Assembly (NCBI GenBank): GCA_030950585.1
Contig: JAUZRG010000051.1
Span: 607-64,606 of the forward strand
From: Mariprofundaceae bacterium
GTDB taxonomy: Bacteria; Pseudomonadota; Zetaproteobacteria; Mariprofundales; Mariprofundaceae
Direction: 5' to 3'
Length of the DNA stretch: 64,000 nucleotides
Of the stretch, positions 40,882 through 53,426 are shown one piece after another. The notes beneath the pieces are model-generated. The model made no database searches. It was given only the letters and a program-made list of their open reading frames with translations, and had not been told where the DNA came from. Every line of letters begins with the position of its first letter. Positions within the stretch are counted from its first letter, which is position 1. A program made the translations under genes and the position numbers.

Positions 40882-40913
40882 CCCCCGAGATAAACCTCGG
40901 GGGATTAATTTTT
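40882..40913. terminator. Intrinsic terminator shared by gltX and the convergent YD-repeat gene
   Basis: CCCCCGAG-ATAAAC-CTCGGGGG hairpin followed by ATTAATTTTT. Confidence 0.7.
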
Positions 40914-40960: not shown

Positions 40961-42644
40961 TCAAAAATTAAAATCAACACCTGCGGGCTTCACAAGACCA
41001 AGCAGTGATTGAAACATTTGTGTCACCTTTAAAGCTATTCTACTGTCGTTATCACCATCACTTTTCACCGATGTAATCTCACCCGCATCATCATATTCAA
41101 CATCAATACCACCCACATCCTTCATCTGAATATGACTTGGTTTACCTAACTGATTATAACGAAAACGCATCACTCGCTCTTTTTCTATCATTTGAATGAT
41201 TCGCCCCTGATCAGCAGAGCCTTCTTTGCCATACAACAAGTCAACACGCTTTCCTAAGTGGTTCTCAGCATGGCTTAAGTGACCTTGTGCATTATAAGCA
41301 AAAGCAGACCATGTCGAAGCCCCATCATTCCAATGCTTATCCACACGACTAATATGATGATGGATGGCATCATAGCTAATGTTTATAGTGGTCGAAGGTG
41401 TTATTTTTTCAATGAAACGCTCACTGTCAGGAGCATAACGAAAATGTGTGACATAGCCCTCTCGCTCGATGCGCAAAGGCAAACCTGATCGAGTCAACTC
41501 TGTTTTGGTCGTCACACCCTGCTGACGAAATTCTCGATGTGTCAACCAAGAGTGACCTCCATTCAATGACTTAAACCAGAAACGAAGTTGCTGTTCCGTT
41601 TTAAGCCCCCGATAAGTCTTTCTTTTAACTTCAACATCCCATGATTGATCACCCGTATAAGTAAACACACGTTGCACACGGTTTTGATCCACAGTCGCCA
41701 CCACAAGCTGTGAATCAGATTCATAACGAATCGTTTCACGTGAAACAAAAGGTGATGACTGAACGGCGATCAAGCGAGCTTGATCATCATACCAATAATT
41801 AAAACCCTTTTTTTTTTGCATTTCGACTATAGAGCAACACAGCTCTATCACCGTAAATATAATAACTTTCTTGAGAGTTTTGAGAAGAGATAAGATCAAC
41901 TCGCCCTTGCCTATTCAAGCTCAACTGTAGCCCATGACCTGCTTTATCTTCAATGCGAATAGCATCCAAATCATAACTGAGTTGTAAGAATGACTTATCC
42001 TTGTGCCAAAGACGAAATAATCGACCTTGGGAATCAAAATCATGGGTTAAAATTCCATTGACAGTATGACGGTAACCCCAAGGCATCGCTTTTAAATCAT
42101 GACAAGCGCAACCATGAGTCTCCCACTTCTGAGAATCTGTCGTCACAAAATCATAAGCCATACCCAAGCCCACAGCATGCTGCCACTGCTCTAAACGCTC
42201 AGAAGCATGCTCACGCAAAGACTGATACCATTTATCACTTTTTTTACTTTGATTGTCTTGCATAAAAGATCGTATTGTTGCAACGGATTGTGATGCCATC
42301 TTTCCCTGATCAGATCCACGCTGGAACCATGTGGCTTTGCCATGACCACTTTCTTGTAACACGATCGCATCTGGCATAAACGTCAGTTGTGTTTCAAATG
42401 TTGAGCCCCAACCAAGACCAAACCAACCCACATAAGAACTGTTTGAACGATAATAACGTGATAGTGAGATATTTAATGAATCAAGCCTGACAACATCTTG
42501 ATACTGTTTTTGATAAGAACCTGTTTTTAAATCGACTTCTGCCCATGCGCTCATGGCATTCATCGTTACAAAAAAGAATAAAACCAAACATAAAATAAAA
42601 TCACATGATTTTGAACATAAGCCATACTGCCAGTATCGCATCAC
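40961..42644 (-). pseudogene. Secreted YD/RHS-repeat protein, reading frame broken at an A10 tract (two ORFs of 281 and 312 aa in the track); possibly phase-variable
   Basis: The N-terminal ORF has a signal peptide (..MSAWA|EV) and the typical YD-shell start (VDLKTGSY...LSRYYRSNS...GLGWGSTFE). The C-terminal ORF carries YD-type repeats (FRYAPDSERF, FAYNAQGHLSH, FRYNQLGKP, VEYDDAGEITSV). Removing one A from the tract joins them in frame as ...YIYGDRAVLLYSRNAKKKGFNYWYDDQARLIAV..., giving ~560 aa. Confidence 0.7.
41808..41817 (-). repeat. Homopolymeric A10 (coding strand) tract at the frameshift point of the YD-repeat gene
   Basis: I counted ten consecutive T on the plus strand (41808..41817). 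Both overlapping ORFs read Lys-Lys-Lys-Gly-Phe across it in different frames. Confidence 0.9.
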
Positions 42645-42674
42645 AGACCTCTCTGACTCACACCTAAAAATATA

Positions 42675-45041
42675 TCATAGTCCCGTTAAAGCACCCCGAA
42701 CCACCCAACTAAAGTTATCAATTTCAAAAGGTTTCTTCACAATGGTTTCGGCACAGCCTAAGCCGTTATCAAGCGAATCTTCTTCATGATAACCTGTAAT
42801 AAAAACAATTTTTACATTAGACTGACATTCACGAATCGCTTTTGCAGCTCCCACACCACCCAAGCCTGGCATGACAACATCTAAAACGACCAAATCAATC
42901 TCACTTTCTCTGGCCATAAATATTTCAACAGCCTCTTGACCATCTTTTGCTGTGATCACACGATACCCCATCAACTCCAAAGCATCGCAAGTCATTTCAC
43001 GCACGACTGCTTCATCATCAGCAATTAGAACTGTTTCTCCCTGACCTTCTGCTAAAGCCTGTTTTATTGGTTTTTCTTCCACTTGAGTTGGTGCATGCAA
43101 CAAAGGTAAATAAGCATGAAATGTGGAACCCACACCCAGCTCACTCTCCACATTGATATAACCACGGTGTGACTTCACAGCACCATACACCATTGATAAA
43201 CCCAGTCCTGTTCCTTTATGACCTTTGGAAGTAAAGAAAGGTTCAAATATCTTTTTAATATTATCCGTCTTCATGCCACAGCCATTATCTTGAATGCTTA
43301 AATGTGCAAACACACCAGCAATAGCCCCGCGATTTTTTTGTAGAAAATTCTGATCAGCTTCATAAGTCTCAAGGCAGACCTTAATACTAGGTTGATCCAC
43401 ACCTGTTAACGCATCTCGTGCATTAATAATTAAGTTAAGTAACATTTGTTGAAGCAGGGTCATATCACCTGTAACCGATAGTGATTCATGACAAATATCA
43501 TACATTAAATCAATTTTTTCAGGTACCGACGTTTTATGTAAATTCAACGTTTCTTTAATTAAAGCATTCAAAAATACTGGTTTCATATCAACAATGCCTT
43601 TACGTGAAAAGGTGAGCATTTGCTGAATGGTTTGCGCTGCACGCGAACTTAATGCTTCAAGCTGCACAAGGTGATCCATCACATCTTGTGACTTACTCGC
43701 CTTAATCTTGGCCATGTACATATGACCATTCATCCCCGCTAAAACATTATTAAATTCATGTGCAATACCACCAACCATAGCGCCAACAGCTTCCATTTTT
43801 TGCGCTTGCATAAAACTTTCTTCTAACTTGGTATGTTCGGTAATATCATGAATGGTGCCAATCAGTTGTAAAATATTGCCTTGAGAACTCGTATGAACTT
43901 CTGTTTGCTCATGAACAATGCGCTCATCACCATTGGACAGAACAACACGCAAAACAGTATTCGTTGCCTTCCCAGCCCTTAAGCTGTTCATAATATGATC
44001 TAATTTTCCTATATCTTCAGGGTGAATAAACTGGCGACACAAGGCAATCGAAGGTTTTATTGAATCAGGATTGCTATCTAAAATATGAAACAACTCATCT
44101 GAGAAATAGATATCATCATCTGAGATATTCCACTCCCAACCACCTAAATGAGAAATATGCTGTGCTTTTTCAAGACGGAGCTTCACCTTACGCAAAGTCG
44201 TTTCTATTTTTTGAGCATTGTTAATTTCTGATAAAATCGCGCAATAATGCGTTAATCTTTTTTTCTGATTGTAGATACCGCTAATATGCGCCCAGACATT
44301 GTAATCTTCTCCAGACTTGCGTCTAAACAATAACTCACCTTGCCATTCACCTTGTTCAATTAAGGCAGCAAATAACAACTCATGTTTTTTCACATCACTA
44401 TACTCAGACGTAAAATCAATAATCTCGTGGCCTAAAACGTCGTTTTCACTCAAGCCACTTAACTGAGAAAAGGCAGGGTTAATGCGTTCAACTACACCTT
44501 TTTCATCTGTGATCACCACGCTTTCGTGTGTGTCATGAATGGCTTGATCGGCCAAAATAAGCTGAGACTCCGCGCTTTCACGCAAAGCAACCTCTCGTGT
44601 TAACTTCAAATTATTGACTTCTAATTTCTTATTGTGATATTTTAGTGCTTGATGTGTGCGATAAAGATCAACAAATATATCAACCTTAGATATTAAAATC
44701 TGCGGCTGAATAGGCTTCATCACATAATCAACAGCACCGCTTGCATAAGCCTTTACTTCCATCGAACCTTCACGATCAAATGCCGTTAAAAAAACAATCG
44801 GGATACGTTGACAACTTTCTTTTGACTTTAAGAGCTGAACGGTTTCAAAACCATCTAAACCGGGCATTTGAACATCCATTAGAATCACTGCAAAATCTTG
44901 ATCTTTTAATAAAATTTCAAGAGCAGCCTCGCCAGATGAAGCACAAACCAATTCACGATCATCGGCCTCAAGCAATGGCTCCAGAGCCAATAAATTCGCT
45001 TCTATATCATCAACAAGAAGAATTTTAATCGGTTGATTCAT
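42675..45041 (-). CDS. Hybrid sensor histidine kinase: REC - coiled coil - PAS - PAS - HisKA - HATPase - REC
   Basis: 788 aa. The N-terminal receiver has ILLVDD...LMDVQMPGLDG...LTA. The H-box is GIAHEFNNVL, with N/G boxes NLIINARDA, DNGCGM and GTGLGLS. The C-terminal receiver has VLIADDE...VLDVVMPGLGG. Confidence 0.88.
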   Translation of the reverse strand: MNQPIKILLVDDIEANLLALEPLLEADDRELVCASSGEAALEILLKDQDFAVILMDVQMPGLDGFETVQLLKSKESCQRIPIVFLTAFDREGSMEVKAYASGAVDYVMKPIQPQILISKVDIFVDLYRTHQALKYHNKKLEVNNLKLTREVALRESAESQLILADQAIHDTHESVVITDEKGVVERINPAFSQLSGLSENDVLGHEIIDFTSEYSDVKKHELLFAALIEQGEWQGELLFRRKSGEDYNVWAHISGIYNQKKRLTHYCAILSEINNAQKIETTLRKVKLRLEKAQHISHLGGWEWNISDDDIYFSDELFHILDSNPDSIKPSIALCRQFIHPEDIGKLDHIMNSLRAGKATNTVLRVVLSNGDERIVHEQTEVHTSSQGNILQLIGTIHDITEHTKLEESFMQAQKMEAVGAMVGGIAHEFNNVLAGMNGHMYMAKIKASKSQDVMDHLVQLEALSSRAAQTIQQMLTFSRKGIVDMKPVFLNALIKETLNLHKTSVPEKIDLMYDICHESLSVTGDMTLLQQMLLNLIINARDALTGVDQPSIKVCLETYEADQNFLQKNRGAIAGVFAHLSIQDNGCGMKTDNIKKIFEPFFTSKGHKGTGLGLSMVYGAVKSHRGYINVESELGVGSTFHAYLPLLHAPTQVEEKPIKQALAEGQGETVLIADDEAVVREMTCDALELMGYRVITAKDGQEAVEIFMARESEIDLVVLDVVMPGLGGVGAAKAIRECQSNVKIVFITGYHEEDSLDNGLGCAETIVKKPFEIDNFSWVVRGALTGL

Positions 45042-45163
45042 CTTTTATTCTCCACGGCATTATGCCAGATATGCGATACCATCATTAAAACTAAACACAC
45101 CAATGGTTTCAACTCAAGGCCACGACTATGGCTTGATCTCTATTTTTTTCAAAAACATCATAC

Positions 45164-45739
45164 TTATGTTAAAAATAAATGCTGTATAAAATCATTCGTT
45201 TTCATGTTTTTTGCTGTCGGAACGCACTGAATAGCTGCTTCAGGCATAAAAGGAAAAGCTGCCTCACTAGGGTCTTCCACCAAACAAACGCCTCCTAGAC
45301 GCTCAATATATGCCAAACCTTCTGAGCCATCACAACCCATCCCCGTTAACACCATCCCAATCAAACGACATTGAAACACATCTGCAGCTGATTCAAATAA
45401 AATATTAATAGAAGGTCGACAACTATGTACCAGCTCATCTTGAGATAAGGACATCATCGTGGAGGATTCAATCATCAAGTGATAATCAGCAGGAGCGATA
45501 TAAACATGGCCAGCAAGAATACTCATTTTATCTTCTGCCTCTAACAATGGTAATGGGCAAATATCAGACAAAACATCACATAAATAATGCTTACCATCCG
45601 CTTTTTGATGCACCACTATAAAAATAGGGCAAGGGCAACTTTGAGGTAATTGTGACAAAAACTTTAACAGAAAATCAATACCACCTGCCGAAGCGCCGAT
45701 CACAATCGCATCAATATGACGGTATGGGGGTGCAAACAT
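45164..45739 (-). CDS. cheB: CheB-type protein-glutamate methylesterase, catalytic domain only (no receiver domain)
   Basis: 191 aa. GASAGG (Ser nucleophile), VVHQ (His) and LTGMGCDG (Asp) are spaced as in the CheB catalytic domain. No REC domain is present. Confidence 0.8.
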   Translation of the reverse strand: MFAPPYRHIDAIVIGASAGGIDFLLKFLSQLPQSCPCPIFIVVHQKADGKHYLCDVLSDICPLPLLEAEDKMSILAGHVYIAPADYHLMIESSTMMSLSQDELVHSCRPSINILFESAADVFQCRLIGMVLTGMGCDGSEGLAYIERLGGVCLVEDPSEAAFPFMPEAAIQCVPTAKNMKTNDFIQHLFLT

Positions 45740-45741
45740 AC

Positions 45742-46545
45742 TTAATTGCTCTTTCGATAAATGCGATGTTGTGCATTAAAAGCCTGAAAATGACCTTGAA
45801 GATGAACACTTTCTTTTTGACCCACAGCCAATAAACCTAAAGGACGTAAACTTTGATGCATTAAGCCCAATACTTTCGTTTTTAGTTCTGTATTAAAGTA
45901 AATCATCACATTACGACACAAGATAATTTCAAACTCTTGAAAAGGACCATCCGTTGCTAAATTATGATTACAAAAAGTTATTTTATCTTTCAAGCTGGGT
46001 TTGAAAATAACATTACCATAACGAGCAACATAATATTCTGAAAAATCTTCACAGCCCCCTGCTGCATGATAATTATGAATCGCACTTTTTATATGAGACA
46101 ATGGGTATATCCCTTCACGGGCAATTTTTAATGCTTTTTCATTAATATCGGTTGCATAAATACGCGCACGATCAAGCAAACCTGCTTCCAATAAAAGAAT
46201 AGCCAATGAATAAACTTCTTCACCTGTGGAACAACCTGCATGCCAAATATTAAATAGAGGGAAAGTATGCAAAACAGGAATTACTTCTTGGCGAAGCACA
46301 CGATAAAATTCAGCATCGCGAAACATCTCAGTCACATACACGGAAATATCTAATAAAAGCTGATCCATCGCTTCAGCATGATGTAAAACACGGTCTTGCA
46401 ATAACGAGATCGTTTCAAGCTTATGAATCATCATATGCCTTTTAATGCGTCGTTTAATAGATGCGCGCGCGTAATCTCTAAAGTCATGCCCATACTTTTG
46501 ATAAATGCCTTCCAACAATAATGTTAATTCAATATCCTCAATCAC
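45742..46545 (-). CDS. cheR: CheR-type protein-glutamate O-methyltransferase
   Basis: 267 aa with an N-terminal helical CheR domain (YGHDFRDYARASIKRRI), a SAM-binding region (IWHAGCSTGEEVYSLAILL) and ILCRNVMIYF. A 2-nt gap separates it from cheB. Confidence 0.85.
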   Translation of the reverse strand: MIEDIELTLLLEGIYQKYGHDFRDYARASIKRRIKRHMMIHKLETISLLQDRVLHHAEAMDQLLLDISVYVTEMFRDAEFYRVLRQEVIPVLHTFPLFNIWHAGCSTGEEVYSLAILLLEAGLLDRARIYATDINEKALKIAREGIYPLSHIKSAIHNYHAAGGCEDFSEYYVARYGNVIFKPSLKDKITFCNHNLATDGPFQEFEIILCRNVMIYFNTELKTKVLGLMHQSLRPLGLLAVGQKESVHLQGHFQAFNAQHRIYRKSN

Positions 46546-46603
46546 AATATATATCCAAATATTTCTCGTTGCATATTAAACCTACTCTCATCAATGAAAG
46601 ACA

Positions 46604-49600
46604 TTAATCATGCAGCCAAACACGCATCAAAGAAATCAATTTATCCGTATCAATGGGTTTGGTAATATAATCTGATGCACCCGCAGCGATACACTGCTCA
46701 CGATCCCCTTTCATGGCTTTGGCTGTCAATGCAATCACAGGTAAATTTTGATGTGCTTTTATCTTCCTTATTTCTCTGGTGGCAGTATGACCATCCATTT
46801 CTGGCATCATCACATCCATCAATACCAATGAGATTTTATCGGCATGCCTTTCTAAAACAGACAAGGCTTCCAAGCCATTTCTTGCTGTATGAATAATCAA
46901 CTCATGACCTTCTAAATAACTAGAAAGAGAGTATATATTACGAATATCATCATCAACCAACAAAACAACGTTACCTGCCAACGTCACTTCTTGTTCTCGC
47001 ACATGATTAATCAAACTTTGCCTGTCTTTTGACATATCCTCTTCTAATTGGTGTAAGAACAAGCTTGTTTCAGCCAAAAGTCGATCTGGAGAATATGAGC
47101 CTTTCACAATAATGCTTTTTGACATCCCTTGTAATCGCTCAACTTCGTCAACATTTAAATCTTTGCCTGTATGCACAATGATAGGCAACACATGACCTTG
47201 ATTAATATGACCTTCTTCTTGCGCAATCACTTCTAACACTTGCTCTCCACTCATATCAGGCAAACTCAAATCAAGAACCATGCAATCAACATGGACTTGC
47301 CTTAGAATATCTAAAGCTTCCTGCCCTGTAGAAGCTGTTAATAACTCCACGTTATTTGAAGCCAACAACTGACTCATCGCATCCTGTTGGACGGGGTCAT
47401 CTTCAGCAATGAGTAAACGGCAAATATCTTTTTCAAGAAAAGCACTGATCTCATTAATCGTATGATCCAAACGACTTTTATCCGCAGGCTTATGTACAAA
47501 AGAAAGCGCACCAGCATTAAGCACGCGCTGTTCAGATTCTTCATCCATACAAGAAATAATATGCACAGGAATATGCTTTAATTTAGGATGTTGTTTTAAA
47601 CGATCCAAAACACTCATGCCGTCTAAAATAGGCAGTTGTAAATCAAGCAAGATCGCATCAGGCACATATTGATGTGCTAACGACAATGCATGATCACCAC
47701 GCATCGCATTGATGGCTTTAAAGCCATGTTCTCGTACCAATGTTTGTAAGATTTCTGAAAAGGTTTCATCATCTTCAATAATTTGAATCGTTCGATCACT
47801 GCTGGTGATGCTATCGCGGTCATCAGCCATTGGGTTAGGAATTGCATCCTGTGTGCTAACGTCGTGATCCAATACCTCTATCTCTTGTATAGGCTGTATT
47901 TTCGTTATGATACTTTTCTTTCTTGTATGAGGTATTTTCTTTTCTTCAGGCTCATCTATGCCACAGCTAATTGGAATCACTAAACTAAAAGAACTTCCTA
48001 CTCCTTGCTCACTTTGAACAGAAATACCCCCACCCAATAAGCTTGAAAGTTCACGACAAATGGATAAACCCAAGCCAGTTCCTCCGTACTTACGACTTGT
48101 GGAACCATCTTCTTGCTGAAAGGCTTCAAAAATATCATTAAGCTTCTTCTGTGCAATGCCAGCCCCCGAATCAGTCACCGTAAAACATATTTGCTCTGCA
48201 TCACATACCTCGACCTTAAGGCTAACCTCACCAGTGCTTGTAAATTTAAAGGCATTAGAAAGTAGGTTTTTAAGCACTTGTTTCACACGCATACTGTCAC
48301 TAAATATCATTTCTGGTGCTGTATCAGCAAGCTCAACCACAAACATCACATGATTACCTTCTGCCACATGAGAAAAATCACGTTGCATCGCATCGGTTAA
48401 ATCACGTAAAGGAAAACGATGTGGATCCAAAACCATTTTGCCCGCTTCAACCTTAGCCAAATCAAGAATATCATTAATTAAAGCCAATAAATCGATACCT
48501 GAACCATAAATGGTTTGTGCAAATTTCACTTGCTTTTCGCTTAAATTATTGCCTTTATTCTTAGCCAGCATATCTGAAAGAATAAGCAAACTATTCAGAG
48601 GTGTGCGTAACTCATGTGACATATTGGATAAGAAATCTGATTTATACTGACTTGCTCGTTCTAACTCAGCGGCTTTGATTGATAGCGACTGGGTTGATTC
48701 CGCTAAACCTTTTCGCTGTTCTTCCACCATTTTATTTTTGGCAAGCAACTCATCATTATTCAGACGCAATTCTTCTTCTTGCGCATGCAGCTCTTCTGTT
48801 AATGCCCGAGACTCTTCCAATAATTTTTCCGTACTCCACGCTTGCTGCACAGACTGCAAAGCCATGCCTAAAATAGGCGATAACTGCTTCAGCATCTTCT
48901 CTTGAATCGGGCTAAGTCCATGCACACTTGCCAACTCAATCACACCAATTAATGCTGTATCTGCTAACAATGGTACTTCTATCAGAAGTTGAGGTGCGAC
49001 CTTACCTAAAGAGGACTGAATATAAAGATAACCACTGGGAAGCTCCTCAGTCATAATCATTTTCTTTTCAAGCGCACACTGCCCTGTCAAACCCTCGCCC
49101 AGTTTAATCGTCTGAGCCAAGTCATGCCCCGAACAAGCATAGTGACTTTGAAAGGCAAGCCAATTTAATTCTTCTTCCCAAAGATAAAAAGAAGCATAAC
49201 TAACCCCCAGCATCGGTGGTAAAACTTGCATGATCATCGTTGCAATAGGCTTGATTTCTTTTTGGCCTTGTAGGTTTAAACTAATTTCAGCCAAACATGA
49301 TTTTAACCAATCTTGCTCTTCTGCATTGGCCGTGCTTTCACGCAAGGACTGTGTCATATGCAAAAGCGAACGTCTTAATTCATCTTTATCATGTTGAACA
49401 TGAATCTCAACATTGTAATTTCCACGTGCAACCTCTGCTGCCATAGCCGATAAAGATTGTAAGGTTTGGTTCATCTGCAATAAAGACTGACCCAAAGCAT
49501 CCGACTCCCCGCAAACATCAAGCCCATGACTAAAATCACCCTGAGCAATCCGTATCGACTGATCAATGGTGTGCTGCATACTTCGGTCTAGTTTACGGCC

Positions 49601-51094
49601 TGCTTCTATCAGGTCTGTAATCTCATCATCACCACGGTAAAAAATACGATCATGCCCAACTTCACCTTGAGAGAGTAATTTTAGCTGTGTGGTTACTTCT
49701 CTCATCGGTTGCATCAAACGACGTGCAAACCAAGTGCCCACAATCAAAGCAATAAAAATAAAAACACTGACCGTTATCATAATATATTGCTTAAAACTGA
49801 GTTCAAAGGAGCGCACAGCAGCAAAGGCTTCTTTAGCATCCACTTCACTCACCAACACCCAGTTAAGATTGGGAATATTTAAGGGGGTGTATGCAGCAAG
49901 CACAGAGACGTTGCGATAATCTTCATATTCACCAACACTAACCTCTCCTTTAAAGGCTGCCTTTGTGGCAGGTGTGTCGACCAAAAGATAGCCGATCACA
50001 TCATGATGCGACTGAATGTTTTTAAGCGTTTTTTCTGGCACACCTGCTTGAGCCAAATGGTTTAAAAACAATGTTTCATCTTCAGAATGAAAGCGTGAAG
50101 AAGAGCGCATGGTTAAATCACTGCCCACAAGGTAACTTTCACCAGTCTGACCTCCACCTGCTTTTTCCCAATTGAAGTTATTGGTCATCACCCGATTAAT
50201 TTCACTAATCGGTATCTGTACTACCAAAACACCAAGAAAAGTCCCTTCATGTTCAATAGCTGCTGATAGAAAGATGGATTGAGCTTCATAAGATGGCGTA
50301 TATCGTGCCATATCAGTCAAGCCAACCTCTTTGTTTCCATGCAGCTGCATCGCACTACGATAAGCTTGTGCCAAACCAGTATTTGCCCAAGGACCGCCTT
50401 TCAAACGTGTACCAAAATCAACCTCTTTAAACACGGAGTAAATCACACGGCCTTCTGTGGGTTCGATCAAAAACAAGTCATAATAACCCATGTATTGTTG
50501 AATTTGCCTAAGGTGAAAATGATATTTTTCATGTGCTTTTTTGTGTTCGCTATGCTGCAGAGGCTCGGTATGGATATTATCCACACCATTTAATTTATCT
50601 TTTTGCCCCAAAGGATTTTTATTGGCAATATAATCATACTGCAACACGGTGGCACTATCATCCATCGTACCTAAGATTTTTGAAATCTGATAAGGCTTAG
50701 TCGTCGGATTTTTTTTAATGTATTGCCAACTAAAATCTTGCTTATAATATTTTTCAACAGCTTGGTGCATCTCACTGAGGTTTTCTAACGACTTTAGCTC
50801 ATGCTTGGCTTTCTTCTCTGCCTCAATAAAGGTCGTCATCGCTTCAATCACCATTAAACTATTGGCTAAACTCAAGAGTTGCTTGCTAATACCATGAAAA
50901 TAATCTTCTATTTCCATTGTTTTTGCACTGCGAGTTGCCTCTAGCTGTGAAAAAGCCATTTCACGTGCCATCTTATCAGCAGAAGATGAAGCCAAAAAGT
51001 ACGTTAAAATACCTGATGATAATACGGCGAAAATGGTTAATCCAATCATCACGACACGTAGCTTGAGGCTCAAATTAAAACGCATCTGCATCAC
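46604..51094 (-). CDS. Giant hybrid sensor histidine kinase: double-Cache-like periplasmic domain - HAMP array - GAF - coiled coil - HisKA - HATPase - 3x REC
   Basis: 1496 aa. Two TM helices bracket a ~400-aa periplasmic domain of the kind usually found in MCPs (Cache-like). HAMP follows TM2 (RRLMQPMREVTTQL). GAF has GEGLTGQCALEKK. The H-box is SNMSHELRTPLNS, with N/G boxes LSNAFKFT, DSGAGI and GGTGLGLSI. The three receivers have IIEDDE..LLDLQLPILDG, LIAEDD..VLDLSLPDMSG and LLVDDD..LMDVMMPEMDG. Confidence 0.88.
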   Translation of the reverse strand: MMQMRFNLSLKLRVVMIGLTIFAVLSSGILTYFLASSSADKMAREMAFSQLEATRSAKTMEIEDYFHGISKQLLSLANSLMVIEAMTTFIEAEKKAKHELKSLENLSEMHQAVEKYYKQDFSWQYIKKNPTTKPYQISKILGTMDDSATVLQYDYIANKNPLGQKDKLNGVDNIHTEPLQHSEHKKAHEKYHFHLRQIQQYMGYYDLFLIEPTEGRVIYSVFKEVDFGTRLKGGPWANTGLAQAYRSAMQLHGNKEVGLTDMARYTPSYEAQSIFLSAAIEHEGTFLGVLVVQIPISEINRVMTNNFNWEKAGGGQTGESYLVGSDLTMRSSSRFHSEDETLFLNHLAQAGVPEKTLKNIQSHHDVIGYLLVDTPATKAAFKGEVSVGEYEDYRNVSVLAAYTPLNIPNLNWVLVSEVDAKEAFAAVRSFELSFKQYIMITVSVFIFIALIVGTWFARRLMQPMREVTTQLKLLSQGEVGHDRIFYRGDDEITDLIEAGRKLDRSMQHTIDQSIRIAQGDFSHGLDVCGESDALGQSLLQMNQTLQSLSAMAAEVARGNYNVEIHVQHDKDELRRSLLHMTQSLRESTANAEEQDWLKSCLAEISLNLQGQKEIKPIATMIMQVLPPMLGVSYASFYLWEEELNWLAFQSHYACSGHDLAQTIKLGEGLTGQCALEKKMIMTEELPSGYLYIQSSLGKVAPQLLIEVPLLADTALIGVIELASVHGLSPIQEKMLKQLSPILGMALQSVQQAWSTEKLLEESRALTEELHAQEEELRLNNDELLAKNKMVEEQRKGLAESTQSLSIKAAELERASQYKSDFLSNMSHELRTPLNSLLILSDMLAKNKGNNLSEKQVKFAQTIYGSGIDLLALINDILDLAKVEAGKMVLDPHRFPLRDLTDAMQRDFSHVAEGNHVMFVVELADTAPEMIFSDSMRVKQVLKNLLSNAFKFTSTGEVSLKVEVCDAEQICFTVTDSGAGIAQKKLNDIFEAFQQEDGSTSRKYGGTGLGLSICRELSSLLGGGISVQSEQGVGSSFSLVIPISCGIDEPEEKKIPHTRKKSIITKIQPIQEIEVLDHDVSTQDAIPNPMADDRDSITSSDRTIQIIEDDETFSEILQTLVREHGFKAINAMRGDHALSLAHQYVPDAILLDLQLPILDGMSVLDRLKQHPKLKHIPVHIISCMDEESEQRVLNAGALSFVHKPADKSRLDHTINEISAFLEKDICRLLIAEDDPVQQDAMSQLLASNNVELLTASTGQEALDILRQVHVDCMVLDLSLPDMSGEQVLEVIAQEEGHINQGHVLPIIVHTGKDLNVDEVERLQGMSKSIIVKGSYSPDRLLAETSLFLHQLEEDMSKDRQSLINHVREQEVTLAGNVVLLVDDDIRNIYSLSSYLEGHELIIHTARNGLEALSVLERHADKISLVLMDVMMPEMDGHTATREIRKIKAHQNLPVIALTAKAMKGDREQCIAAGASDYITKPIDTDKLISLMRVWLHD

Positions 51095-51212
51095 AACTCC
51101 TTAAAAAGGATTAAAGTCTGTTAAACATAAAGTTCGGATGCAAGCGTAGTCATCTAAAAGGTATCCTAATGACACAGTGGCAAGCACAAATATTTCCTTA
51201 TATTGCAAAGGC

Positions 51213-53426
51213 TTACTTTCGAACCGTTCTCCAAACACCATGCCATTCTAAAGAGGAGCGCGTGGATAAGTCATCGCAACGCTTTGCCATATGAATAGCC
51301 ACAATATCTTCAAACTGCTCACCGCCACTGCGAAAGATCACCGCAGCTTCTTTAAAATAACCCAAACGATACAACCTTAAAGCCGAAGCATAAGAGACAA
51401 GCATCGGCTCCCAGTAATCATAAGAATGTTTATCTCCAAGCAGTTCATAGACCTTAATTGACTCTGTCTTGCCCACCAGAATGACCGTATCAACTTCTCT
51501 GCAAGTAAATTCATGACCCACTTCTTGCCATGTCGATTCGCCAATCATGCGTTGGCTACCATATTGTTTATTCAAAGATTCAAGCCGAGATGCTGTATTG
51601 CCTGCATCCCCCATAAAGGTGTAATGCAATCGATGTGCAGAGCCAATATTACCCACAACCATCCGTCCTGAGTTAATGCCAACCCGAATACTAAGCGGAC
51701 AATTAATATCGCTAAAGACATTGCGAGCTTTGTATAAAGCCTGCTGAATATCTAAGGCGGCCTTGCAGGCTCTCTCTGCATGATCGTCGTCATGAATAGG
51801 CGCGCCAAATAAAACAATGAGCCCATCGCCAGTCAAACGATCAATGGTGCCTTTATGCTTAAAGATCACAGGTGTTGCTTCTTGAAAAAATAAATTAATA
51901 TAACGCACAGTATCCTGAGGAGATAACATTTCTGAAATGGCTGTAAAACCGGCAACATCCACAAACATCACAGACATATTTCTTTCATCACCACCCAATT
52001 CAGTGAGCTGATGATGATCCATCACATCGGTCACTACAGCGGGATCAATAAAGGATTCAAAAGTATGGCGTAAACGAAGACGTTGTTTTAATTCTGCACC
52101 ATAATTCATGATTGTAAGCACGACAAAGCAACTGATCAACGTAAAAACAGGCAAAACGATATAAATGACCATGCCGTATTGAAAAGAAACATAAGCCATC
52201 AGTAAAATAAGACTAAACATCAGGGTAGATAACATGCCAAAATAACGCCTAACTAAAACATGACCAAAAAAAGCATATAAAACAGCAATCAATGTGATCA
52301 ATAAAAACTCAAGCAAACGCTGAGGAGTAGCATGCTTGAGCACTTGATCATTTAAGATATTCGCAATGATATTCGCTTGTATTTCAACAGTTGAGACTTG
52401 TTTATGATAGGGAGTTTGATAACGAGGCTCCAAGCCCTTCGCCGTCAAACCAAGTAAAACCAATTTACCTTCAAAATCTTGACGGCTTGTCTTACCAGAT
52501 AAAACATCCCTCGCTGAAATGACTTGAAAGGTTTCAGGCTCTGAATAAAATAAAATACGAAACAAGCCTTCTGAGCTTGTCGTCACAATATTTTCTGCAA
52601 TATGTATATCAATATGACCCGTTCGCACCTCGGCTTTTAACACAGCATACCCTTGCCAATGCTGCAAAGCCGCCAGAGCCAAGGGTGATAATAAATAACC
52701 TTGATAATTAAGCATTAAGGGTATTTCTCGCACCTTTGTCAAAGCATCGGGCATTAAACGAATGAACCCGCTATATGCACCATTGACGGTCTCTGAATAT
52801 TCATTTTTTTTGATGCTATGAACCTTGCCAACATTCATCAAAGACCAATCAGCGGCATCAATGCCTTGATAAGCATTGGCAAGAATGAGATCTAACTGAT
52901 CATTGCGATAAAAATCATTGAAAAAGAAAGCATCATTTGCATCCACTTGATAGCCCATGACCGTGGGTGTACTCGCTAAGACTTGTAATAAATAACGATC
53001 TTCTTTTGCGTATTTTTCTAAACTCTGCAAGATAATAGGAACATTTAAGTTCTTTTGTTTAAACCAAGAGATAGCATTTTTCAACACATTCTCTTCAGAA
53101 CTTGAAAATAAAAATGACGTGGCAATCGTGCGTGCTTTTTGCCTCGATATAGTATCTAAAAGACGAGCAACTTTATGACTAGGCCACGGCCAAGACCCCT
53201 CTTCTTGCAAAGAGTCATAATCAATCGCAACAATCACGATAGGATTGTTTTTTGGTTTTTGAATGGTGCTTAGTTGAAAGTAGTAGTCAATAATACTTGT
53301 TTCAGCACGTTGAATAAGTTTTGGTTGCACCCAAAAAAAAACGAGAAAAATGCCGTAAACAAGACCAACACCTATAAAATTTCGATCATGAAATAAAGAA
53401 TACATACACCCCTCAAGAATGAGCAT
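51213..53426 (-). CDS. CHASE2-domain membrane adenylate/guanylate cyclase (class III) with C-terminal helical (TPR-like) extension
   Basis: 737 aa. The CHASE2 signature is IVIVAIDYDSLQEEGSWPWP. TM helices follow, then a cyclase core (VMFVDVAGFT...GDGLIVLFGAP...RVGINSGRMVVGNIG). The start could be the Met at 53405. Confidence 0.85.
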   Translation of the reverse strand: MLILEGCMYSLFHDRNFIGVGLVYGIFLVFFWVQPKLIQRAETSIIDYYFQLSTIQKPKNNPIVIVAIDYDSLQEEGSWPWPSHKVARLLDTISRQKARTIATSFLFSSSEENVLKNAISWFKQKNLNVPIILQSLEKYAKEDRYLLQVLASTPTVMGYQVDANDAFFFNDFYRNDQLDLILANAYQGIDAADWSLMNVGKVHSIKKNEYSETVNGAYSGFIRLMPDALTKVREIPLMLNYQGYLLSPLALAALQHWQGYAVLKAEVRTGHIDIHIAENIVTTSSEGLFRILFYSEPETFQVISARDVLSGKTSRQDFEGKLVLLGLTAKGLEPRYQTPYHKQVSTVEIQANIIANILNDQVLKHATPQRLLEFLLITLIAVLYAFFGHVLVRRYFGMLSTLMFSLILLMAYVSFQYGMVIYIVLPVFTLISCFVVLTIMNYGAELKQRLRLRHTFESFIDPAVVTDVMDHHQLTELGGDERNMSVMFVDVAGFTAISEMLSPQDTVRYINLFFQEATPVIFKHKGTIDRLTGDGLIVLFGAPIHDDDHAERACKAALDIQQALYKARNVFSDINCPLSIRVGINSGRMVVGNIGSAHRLHYTFMGDAGNTASRLESLNKQYGSQRMIGESTWQEVGHEFTCREVDTVILVGKTESIKVYELLGDKHSYDYWEPMLVSYASALRLYRLGYFKEAAVIFRSGGEQFEDIVAIHMAKRCDDLSTRSSLEWHGVWRTVRK

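Follow-up and report, generated by a model that had tools for sequence, protein, structure and literature searches.

An orphan Bd0109-type YD-repeat gene divided at an A10 tract in a Mariprofundaceae bacterium: a candidate hot-spot frameshift

Introduction

On the minus strand of a 64,000-nucleotide stretch of a draft Mariprofundaceae genome (NCBI GenBank assembly GCA_030950585.1, contig JAUZRG010000051.1, positions 607 to 64,606; the whole of this stretch is hereafter called the window), two overlapping open reading frames (ORFs) that would together encode a secreted YD-repeat protein meet at a run of ten adenines. The locus raises the question of whether these ORFs are one gene and, if they are, whether the run marks a phase-variable switch, as was proposed in the first-pass annotation made from the letters alone, a recoding site, a recent mutation or an error of the assembly. 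The analysis described below shows that the two ORFs are halves of one gene, related end to end to bd0109 of the predatory bacterium Bdellovibrio bacteriovorus. The reading we prefer, with a probability of roughly one half, is that of a real and recent slippage frameshift at a mutational hot spot in an orphan, dispensable accessory gene, which would be leaky at most.

One gene divided at the tract

The two ORFs extend over 42644..41799 (281 aa) and 41899..40961 (312 aa), and both the ORF list and the sequence agree with the initial observation that each of them reads KKKGF at the tract. When the minus strand is read from 42644 to 40961, the junction is ...TAT AGT CGA AAT GCA AAA AAA AAA GGG TTT TAA, in which the A run is exactly 10 (plus-strand T10, 41808-41817). 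With one A fewer the frame is open and the ORFs fuse into a protein of 560 aa, in line with the size of about 560 aa predicted before; this reading was mimicked by translating the four-letter word GGGT as G, a word that occurs only once in frame. The words AAAG (as K) and GCAA (as A) were also tried for the same purpose and rejected, as other in-frame sites match them too. On inspection, two extra A's restore the frame as well, with the addition of one lysine. The junction-spanning peptide of the fused protein is ...NAKKKGFNYWYDDQAR. The homologous part of the second ORF starts with ...GFNYWYDD, and by mechanical calling this ORF reaches upstream to a TTG at 41899.

In the public record the locus is represented by two separate proteins, one of 280 aa starting from an ATG at 42641 (P0007, identical to the 5′ frame) and the other of 286 aa starting from an ATG that overlaps the tract. 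In the public collection each of these pieces occurs on a single 65,878-bp contig only. Independent translation of the 3′ half was judged unlikely, the ATG overlapping the tract having no Shine-Dalgarno-like sequence and the product having no signal peptide. Ribosomal frameshifting in the −1 direction was rejected as a way of joining the halves, since inspection shows that it meets a stop 12 codons further on.

The two ORFs belong to a single gene. A word-based search yielded four relatives of 541-549 aa, with 94-97% of the fused protein covered, and among 160 relatives, a set of loci obtained from scans of genome and metagenome contigs, the fused protein aligned as a single high-scoring segment pair in all 160. 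Residues from 45 or earlier to 555 or later were spanned in 159 of them, and the median ORF length was 543 aa. At the position of the junction the relatives possess a canonical YD repeat, Y.Y..(D)L..S.D..GN.Y.Y.YD..HN, the halves of which come from the two different frames of the window (YIYGDRAVLLYSRNAKKK and GFNYWYDDQARLIAV); the repeat thus straddles the junction, and the earlier statement that YD repeats run on across it holds. No A/T run longer than 8 was found in the gene among 154 relatives. The run itself is not beyond chance, as there are 4 A9 matches in the window versus 7.6 ± 3.3 in shuffles. What is not random is the coincidence of a run of at least nine A's with a frame break in a gene that is unbroken in all 160 relatives.

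Two closer relatives, P0008 (41% identity) and P0009 (32%), were found by an exhaustive HMMER search, and both are unsplit. The junction site reads ...DASGEGSNYWY... in the former and ...EQERLNYWY... in the latter, in both cases without the tract. The corresponding DNA of P0008 is GCA TCA GGA GAA GGG, with a gap of three codons between Ala and Gly, as in the A9 form of the window gene. The comparison suggests A9 to be the ancestral, length-conserving form of the tract.

The half lying out of frame shows no decay. Among the 213 columns conserved in at least 90% of Bdellovibrionota members of the family, the window protein retains 40 of the 89 that precede the junction and 67 of the 124 that follow it; for the intact proteins P0008 and P0009 the corresponding numbers are 38-42 and 59-62. 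In each half the GC content at the codon positions has the pattern of coding DNA, and the 279-codon continuation is free of stops. Because the conserved residues, the open frame and the coding-type GC have all been retained, the gene is not an old pseudogene: the break is recent, bypassed or not real.

Relationship to the Bd0109 family

The family profile matches a 550-aa ORF at positions 97194-98846 of a 3,782,950-bp single-contig genome. Six primers published by Capeness et al. (2013; PMC3818213) for bd0110, bd0111 and the bd0103-bd0108 small RNA match exactly in the genes flanking this ORF, which is followed by a 101-aa ORF, and the 550-aa ORF is therefore bd0109 of B. bacteriovorus HD100. 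BLASTP aligns the fused protein with Bd0109 over residues 21-558 and 4-548, respectively (24% identity, E 6e-38), and the two halves reach E-values of 1.3e-90 and 2.4e-74 with the Bd0109-family profile. Judged by sequence, the fused protein is a distant member of the Bd0109 family, which consists of toxin-less YD proteins of about 545 aa.

Bd0109 has been described as a periplasmic or secreted YD-repeat protein of about 65 kDa that is co-transcribed with type IVb (Tad) pilus genes, is bound by the small disordered protein Bd0108, is refractory to deletion and has been proposed to regulate pilus extrusion (PMC3818213; PMC5430801). The TAD operon of B. bacteriovorus consists of bd0109-bd0119 (PMC5430801), and bd0108 itself has been described as unique to Bdellovibrio (PMC3818213). 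A full-length family match was found in 230 of the 251 Bdellovibrionota genomes sampled, nearly always in a single copy, and among the matches listed internal stops are present in only one. In 110 out of the 111 loci whose flanks are long enough, the Bd0109-type gene is the closing gene of the Tad/Flp pilus operon: a tadB-like (T2SSF) gene lies upstream at a median distance of 60 nt and is itself preceded by TadZ/A-like, secretin and RcpC genes, and downstream of the Bd0109-type gene a response regulator gene lies in 72 and a Lon protease gene in 75 of the 82 loci with enough flank.

Small ORFs of 60-101 aa that come within 8-18 nt after the Bd0109-type gene were observed in two Bacteriovoracia loci, L003 (1809-2000) and L004 (7635-7817), and the gene for Bd0108 has the corresponding position in HD100 (L174; G179:C1:96873-97178). 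A comparison with the rest of the collected loci gave no sequence match to the small ORFs of L004.

Protein architecture

The N-terminus of the fused protein resembles a Sec-type signal peptide, and in the AlphaFold2 model a helix spans residues 14-28 of this region, where the predicted local distance difference test score (pLDDT) is low. The N-termini of the relatives are laid out alike (...AFA|GVNLKNG). The block VDLKTGSY...GLGWGSTFE, regarded in the first-pass annotation as a typical YD-shell N-terminus, corresponds to Pfam DUF6531, which is matched above the cut-off (E 1.4e-11) and by no other gene in the whole genome. The YD repeats are recognized by TIGR01643 (20.2 bits vs a cut-off of 15.8) and weakly by single Pfam models, and the family profile matches the solved Rhs cores in the PDB with an E-value of about 1e-22.

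In the AlphaFold2 model (68 sequences, pLDDT 79) an array of β-hairpins continues unbroken across the junction, which is situated in the best-predicted region, and the three lysines encoded by the tract make up the loop (residues 275-279) that connects strand 270-274 to strand 280-285. Because the hairpins of the model are continuous there, the 281-aa product would end in the middle of a sheet. Foldseek ranks Rhs cores of type VI secretion systems (T6SS), teneurins and Tc BC proteins at the top (E down to 1.8e-20), with TM-scores of 0.15-0.3, which are low because the protein is half the size of the matched structures.

It had also been pointed out that the protein is short for an RHS protein and has neither an obvious C-terminal toxin domain nor a downstream immunity gene. 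Domain, motif and ORF searches bear this out: neither the core-end DPxGL motif nor any further Pfam domain, toxins included, was found in the protein, and no ORF or immunity gene was found downstream before the gltX terminator. With a YD-repeat core and without the motif, a further variable domain or a downstream gene, the product is a YD-repeat protein and not a polymorphic toxin. The short length and the absence of a toxin and an immunity gene, listed at first as oddities, are ordinary traits of the Bd0109 family, and are explained by membership in this family rather than among the polymorphic toxins.

Homopolymer controls and the reality of the A10

A sequencing or assembly artefact would mean that the true tract is A9, that the gene is intact and that the extra A was introduced during library preparation, sequencing or consensus calling. 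Such an origin would be consistent with the state of the genome, a single draft assembly of 2.52 Mb (42% GC, 99% completeness) in 212 contigs, with the occurrence of both ORFs on one contig only and with the perfect preservation of the downstream half. The run also has the greatest homopolymer length in the genome, at which indel errors are likeliest: there are 8 A/T runs of length 10, 70 of length 9, 378 of length 8, 1551 of length 7, 4212 of length 6 and none longer than 10. However, the share of runs that coincide with the meeting point of two long frames shows no trend with length, being 1.4-2.9% for lengths 6-9, which is the ordinary gene-boundary level, and this lack of excess at the runs of 6 to 9 argues against an artefact, as does another A10, situated in frame within an ORF of 1069 aa. 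In the window, the two remaining A9 runs were confirmed to be in frame inside long ORFs, on which basis a general homopolymer artefact had been considered less likely from the outset.

This earlier view is strengthened by an inspection of the 11 junction candidates at runs of at least 8, only three of which are true breaks, namely the A10 under study, an A9 in an ISAzo13-type transposase gene and an A10 in pfaA. The polyunsaturated fatty acid (PUFA) synthase gene pfaA is split between the last acyl carrier protein (ACP) domain (...HLQGNTQKKN*) and the part comprising the ketoreductase (KR) and dehydratase (DH) domains (KKKLIRLPL...) at C136:55210-55219 (L178:1491-1500), and an additional A or a −1 shift would join its halves. 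The KR-DH piece has its closest relative in P0157 (67% identical), which likewise stands as an ORF of its own on long contigs. The P0157 junction (L184:1395-1404), ...CAA AAA AAA AAC TAA TAC GGC TTC CGC TT, agrees with it in the A10, in the bases that follow and in the change of frame, and its flanks have diverged; this sequence was recovered in three assemblies of a hydrothermal-vent metagenome. In more distant pfaA genes (33-37% identity) there is no split, and the site lies inside open frames of 2105-2261 aa. The possibility that the pfaA break is a second artefact, which would have made an assembly error at the YD gene more probable, was rejected on account of the same A10 and frame change in the diverged relative; the pfaA site is therefore real and maintained, and by its sequence looks like a conserved recoding site. 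The assembly calls the A10 correctly at pfaA, and the odds of an artefact at the YD gene are therefore lowered, though not removed. Taking both sides together, an artefact appears unlikely, although it is the most probable of the alternatives, and the A10 of the YD gene is probably real.

Three further observations were made in the course of this screen. The ISAzo13-family transposase (Pfam DDE_Tnp_ISAZ013; C54:1050-1058) changes frame at its A9, which divides the domain at about profile position 100 (...VSVDTKKK / ELIGNLF...), and could be a case of programmed slippage or a dead copy. The sole A10 in frame in a long ORF (C18:3822-3831) belongs to the 1069-aa protein, which contains a long low-complexity stretch rich in Ser, Gly, Thr and Asp. 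In the pfaA gene of another genome, G022 (L180:4450-5170), the frame of the matches changes from −3 to −1 within tandem ACP repeats, which may be due to a frameshift or to mis-assembly of the repeats.

Phase variation or programmed recoding

The proposal of a phase-variable switch in a secreted YD gene stands in so far as one gene is split at an A10 within its coding frame; the indirect signs by which a contingency locus is recognized are absent. Under this explanation a heritable and reversible A9/A10 slippage would switch a surface or periplasmic YD protein under selection. It would suit a tract that, according to the model, is placed in a loop tolerant of length change, a product with a predicted signal peptide for secretion and a downstream frame that is fully preserved, and the corresponding type of locus in Bdellovibrio is the site of a mutational lifestyle switch, which works via bd0108 and not bd0109 (PMC3818213). 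Contrary to this explanation, long tracts are not enriched either in the window or in the genome, where the longest are the 8 A/T10 runs, so neither an over-long tract nor a tract-rich genome is present. The screen of runs of at least 8 gave no second candidate contingency gene, MutS is present and intact, the tract lies in the middle of the gene and not near its 5′ end, and the closest relatives do not have it. An evolved contingency locus is thus quite improbable.

In the case of programmed recoding, the A10 would be maintained and slippage would give a fixed ratio of 31-kDa to 63-kDa products, as in tssM1 of Citrobacter rodentium or in the pfaA gene of this genome. The conserved pfaA A10 site points to slippage decoding operating in the lineage, both halves of the YD gene are preserved, and a related genus holds a naturally short DUF6531-YD protein of 328 aa, all of which would fit. 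Yet, although a run of at least nine A's does lie at the junction, as in the programmed slippage sites of Thermus dnaX and C. rodentium tssM, it is not conserved in diverged orthologues (the 154 relatives), unlike that of pfaA, and the nearest homologues (41% and 32%) are unsplit and have no run. The shift needed here (one A fewer, two more or a +1 ribosomal shift) is in the less favoured direction at A runs (PMC5574713), and the short form would, according to the model, end inside a β-sheet. We regard programmed recoding as very improbable. The broader idea that the A10 is maintained at all, making this a second slippage-dependent gene beside pfaA and giving either a set short-to-long ratio or a heritable on/off Bd0109-type function outside predators, is also improbable, if somewhat less so.

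Genomic setting and orphan status

The glutamyl-tRNA synthetase gene gltX follows the YD gene in convergent orientation, and its product is 70-72% identical to proteins of Mariprofundus, Mariprofundaceae and Zetaproteobacteria. No orthologue of the YD gene was found in the 40 nearest genomes, nor in 132 other species genomes of the class, where the single match was a remote DUF6531 protein of 328 aa. The latter, encoded in another Mariprofundaceae genus (G306, L176:1486-2472), was rejected as an orthologue, its similarity being confined to the DUF6531 region and weak YD-repeat matches; it is a naturally short secreted protein with few YD repeats, and its locus is rich in ambiguous bases.

There is no RcpC match in the genome, and hence no sign of a tad locus. 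The T2SSF-like genes were considered as candidates and rejected, since their clusters are type IV pilus-like or type II secretion-like; the third of them, on contig C203, has type IV pilin-like genes on either side, close to dnaG and rpoD, and is not part of a tad operon. The YD gene is preceded by a hybrid histidine kinase gene instead of tadB and is followed only by the hairpin shared with gltX, with no small Bd0108-like partner gene. It is therefore an orphan in this genome, without tad genes and without a partner.

The gene stands at the tail of a 12.5-kb signalling array (window positions 40961-53426) composed of genes for c-di-GMP signalling, CheR-CheB and hybrid kinases. As had been noted, it starts 30 nt past the last kinase gene, and no terminator-like site was found in this gap, for which reason the YD gene is probably co-transcribed with the array. 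In the nearest organism, from a vent metagenome and with a GltX 80% identical, the order L31-L21-L27-187aa-359aa-gltX is shared (L189:7396-13395), and past gltX there are genes for an integrase, CtpB and an M23 peptidase as well as rlmH, rsfS and nadD, with no YD gene or array. In the genome studied here those housekeeping genes are found on contig C203, and from this arrangement the signalling array appears to be lineage-specific or the region rearranged. An exact look-up of the neighbouring GltX for further assemblies gave no match. The GC content of the YD gene (40.9%) equals that of the window (41.5%), and any transfer of the gene would therefore not have been recent. The coordinates of the features are collected in Table 1.

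Table 1 Features of the divided YD-repeat gene and its immediate flanks, in window coordinates.
Feature	Position	Strand	Description
5′ reading frame	41799..42644	-	281 aa; ends ...SRNAKKKGF* just past the tract; signal-peptide-like N-terminus, DUF6531, helical insert, first YD hairpins
A10 homopolymer, frame-change site	41808..41817	-	Encodes Lys-Lys-Lys loop joining two YD β-strands; in frame if A9 or A12
3′ continuation, +1 frame	40961..41807	-	279 codons and stop; YD repeats and the conserved C-terminal helix of the family
Predicted Sec-type signal peptide, residues 1-35 (...MSAWA|EV)	42540..42644	-	By inspection: basic N-terminus, hydrophobic helix 14-28
DUF6531, residues 37-100	42345..42536	-	Pfam PF20148, E 1.4e-11, 45 bits vs cut-off of 24.1
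Conserved C-terminal helix and tail (ALKVTQMFQSLLGLVKPAGV)	40976..41047	-	Block with the least variation in the family (columns A537-V556 invariant among 68 sequences); modelled as helix 533-548
Gap between kinase gene and YD gene	42645..42674	-	30 nt after the gene for a 788-aa hybrid histidine kinase; purine-rich AGAGAGG before the start codon
GC-rich hairpin between convergent gltX and YD gene	40882..40903	.	Only clear terminator at the 3′ end

Weighing the preferred reading

In the preferred reading, that of a recent slippage frameshift in an orphan accessory gene, an ancestral lysine-coding A9 would have become one base longer by slippage at a hot spot. The main product would then be the 281-aa N-terminal fragment ending in the middle of a β-sheet, and a full-length secreted or periplasmic protein of about 63 kDa might be made as a minor product through slippage of RNA polymerase, when one A is lost or two are added. 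Revertants from A10 to A9 in the population could be a further source of the full-length form. Leaky full-length expression is plausible by analogy with the A11 run of C. rodentium tssM1, the transcripts of which contain from 10 to 15 A's (PMC4256274), and with the apparent A10 recoding site that this lineage has in pfaA. The locus may thus flicker, and nothing found here supports its having evolved as a switch.

Several points weigh against this reading. Slippage at A/T runs produces mostly single insertions (PMC5574713), and a single insertion here leads to a stop 12 codons on, so that only a minority of transcripts, those short of one A or carrying two more, would be productive, which speaks against the leak. 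The A10 at this site comes from one assembly, with both ORFs present on one contig only, and an assembly error would account for the lack of decay just as well. Given the conserved recoding site at the A10 of pfaA, a maintained slippery site in a second gene may be conceivable, and the dispensability of the YD gene is argued from its missing partners.

Implications

The analysis likely corrects a mis-annotation, the two hypothetical ORFs of the public record being one gene of the Bd0109 family, in which the missing toxin module is a family trait and not an oddity. The predator-associated Bd0109 family is found, if rarely, outside Bdellovibrionota and away from any Tad pilus genes, a small clue that a Bd0109-type protein can act, or once acted, independently of the Tad machine. 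Should the tract prove to vary, phase variation would have a rare example here in a chemolithotroph with a free-living habit; on the present evidence the locus is most likely a common hot-spot frameshift. With its conserved A10 break in the same assembly, the pfaA site gives an internal reference against which homopolymer frameshifts of draft genomes can be judged.

Comparison with known systems

Phase variation at homopolymers is known from host-adapted bacteria, examples being poly-G in Neisseria pilC and the poly-G/C tracts of Campylobacter. The YD gene is similar to these in having a mononucleotide run in the coding region of a gene for a predicted secreted protein, where a one-base change toggles the frame. 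Unlike the genomes of Neisseria and Campylobacter, which have many over-long tracts that are mostly near 5′ ends and vary between reads or strains, the genome studied here has no excess of tracts and no second such gene.

Transcriptional frameshifting at poly-A has been reported for tssM1 of C. rodentium and tssM3 of Yersinia pseudotuberculosis (Gueguen et al. 2014, PMC4256274). As in these genes, a poly-A run interrupts the YD gene, and both truncated and full-length products would be possible by slippage of RNA polymerase. The tssM1 gene codes for a component of an envelope machine; its run is an A11, its frame is restored by additional A's, both of its products have been shown to be needed, and a second species has the site as well (PMC4256274). 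In the YD gene the run is an A10, the frame would be restored by the loss of one A or the gain of two, and the relatives do not share the site.

With the T6SS-linked Rhs effectors and the Tc BC cocoons (for example PDB 8qjc, 7q97, 4igl) the protein shares a YD β-hairpin sheet. It differs from them in being half their size, so that it cannot close a shell, and in having no DPxGL motif, C-terminal toxin, immunity gene or neighbouring PAAR or VgrG gene.

The host of the divided gene is a Zetaproteobacterium of the iron-oxidizer type and not a predator, and the gene differs from bd0109 in the low identity of its product (24%), in its position outside a tad operon, in the lack of a small partner gene downstream and in being frameshifted, while bd0109 resisted deletion. 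Its product resembles Bd0109 in aligning with it from end to end, in its similar size and absence of a toxin domain, and in the same order of parts, from a predicted signal peptide through DUF6531, a helical insert and YD hairpins to the C-terminal helix.

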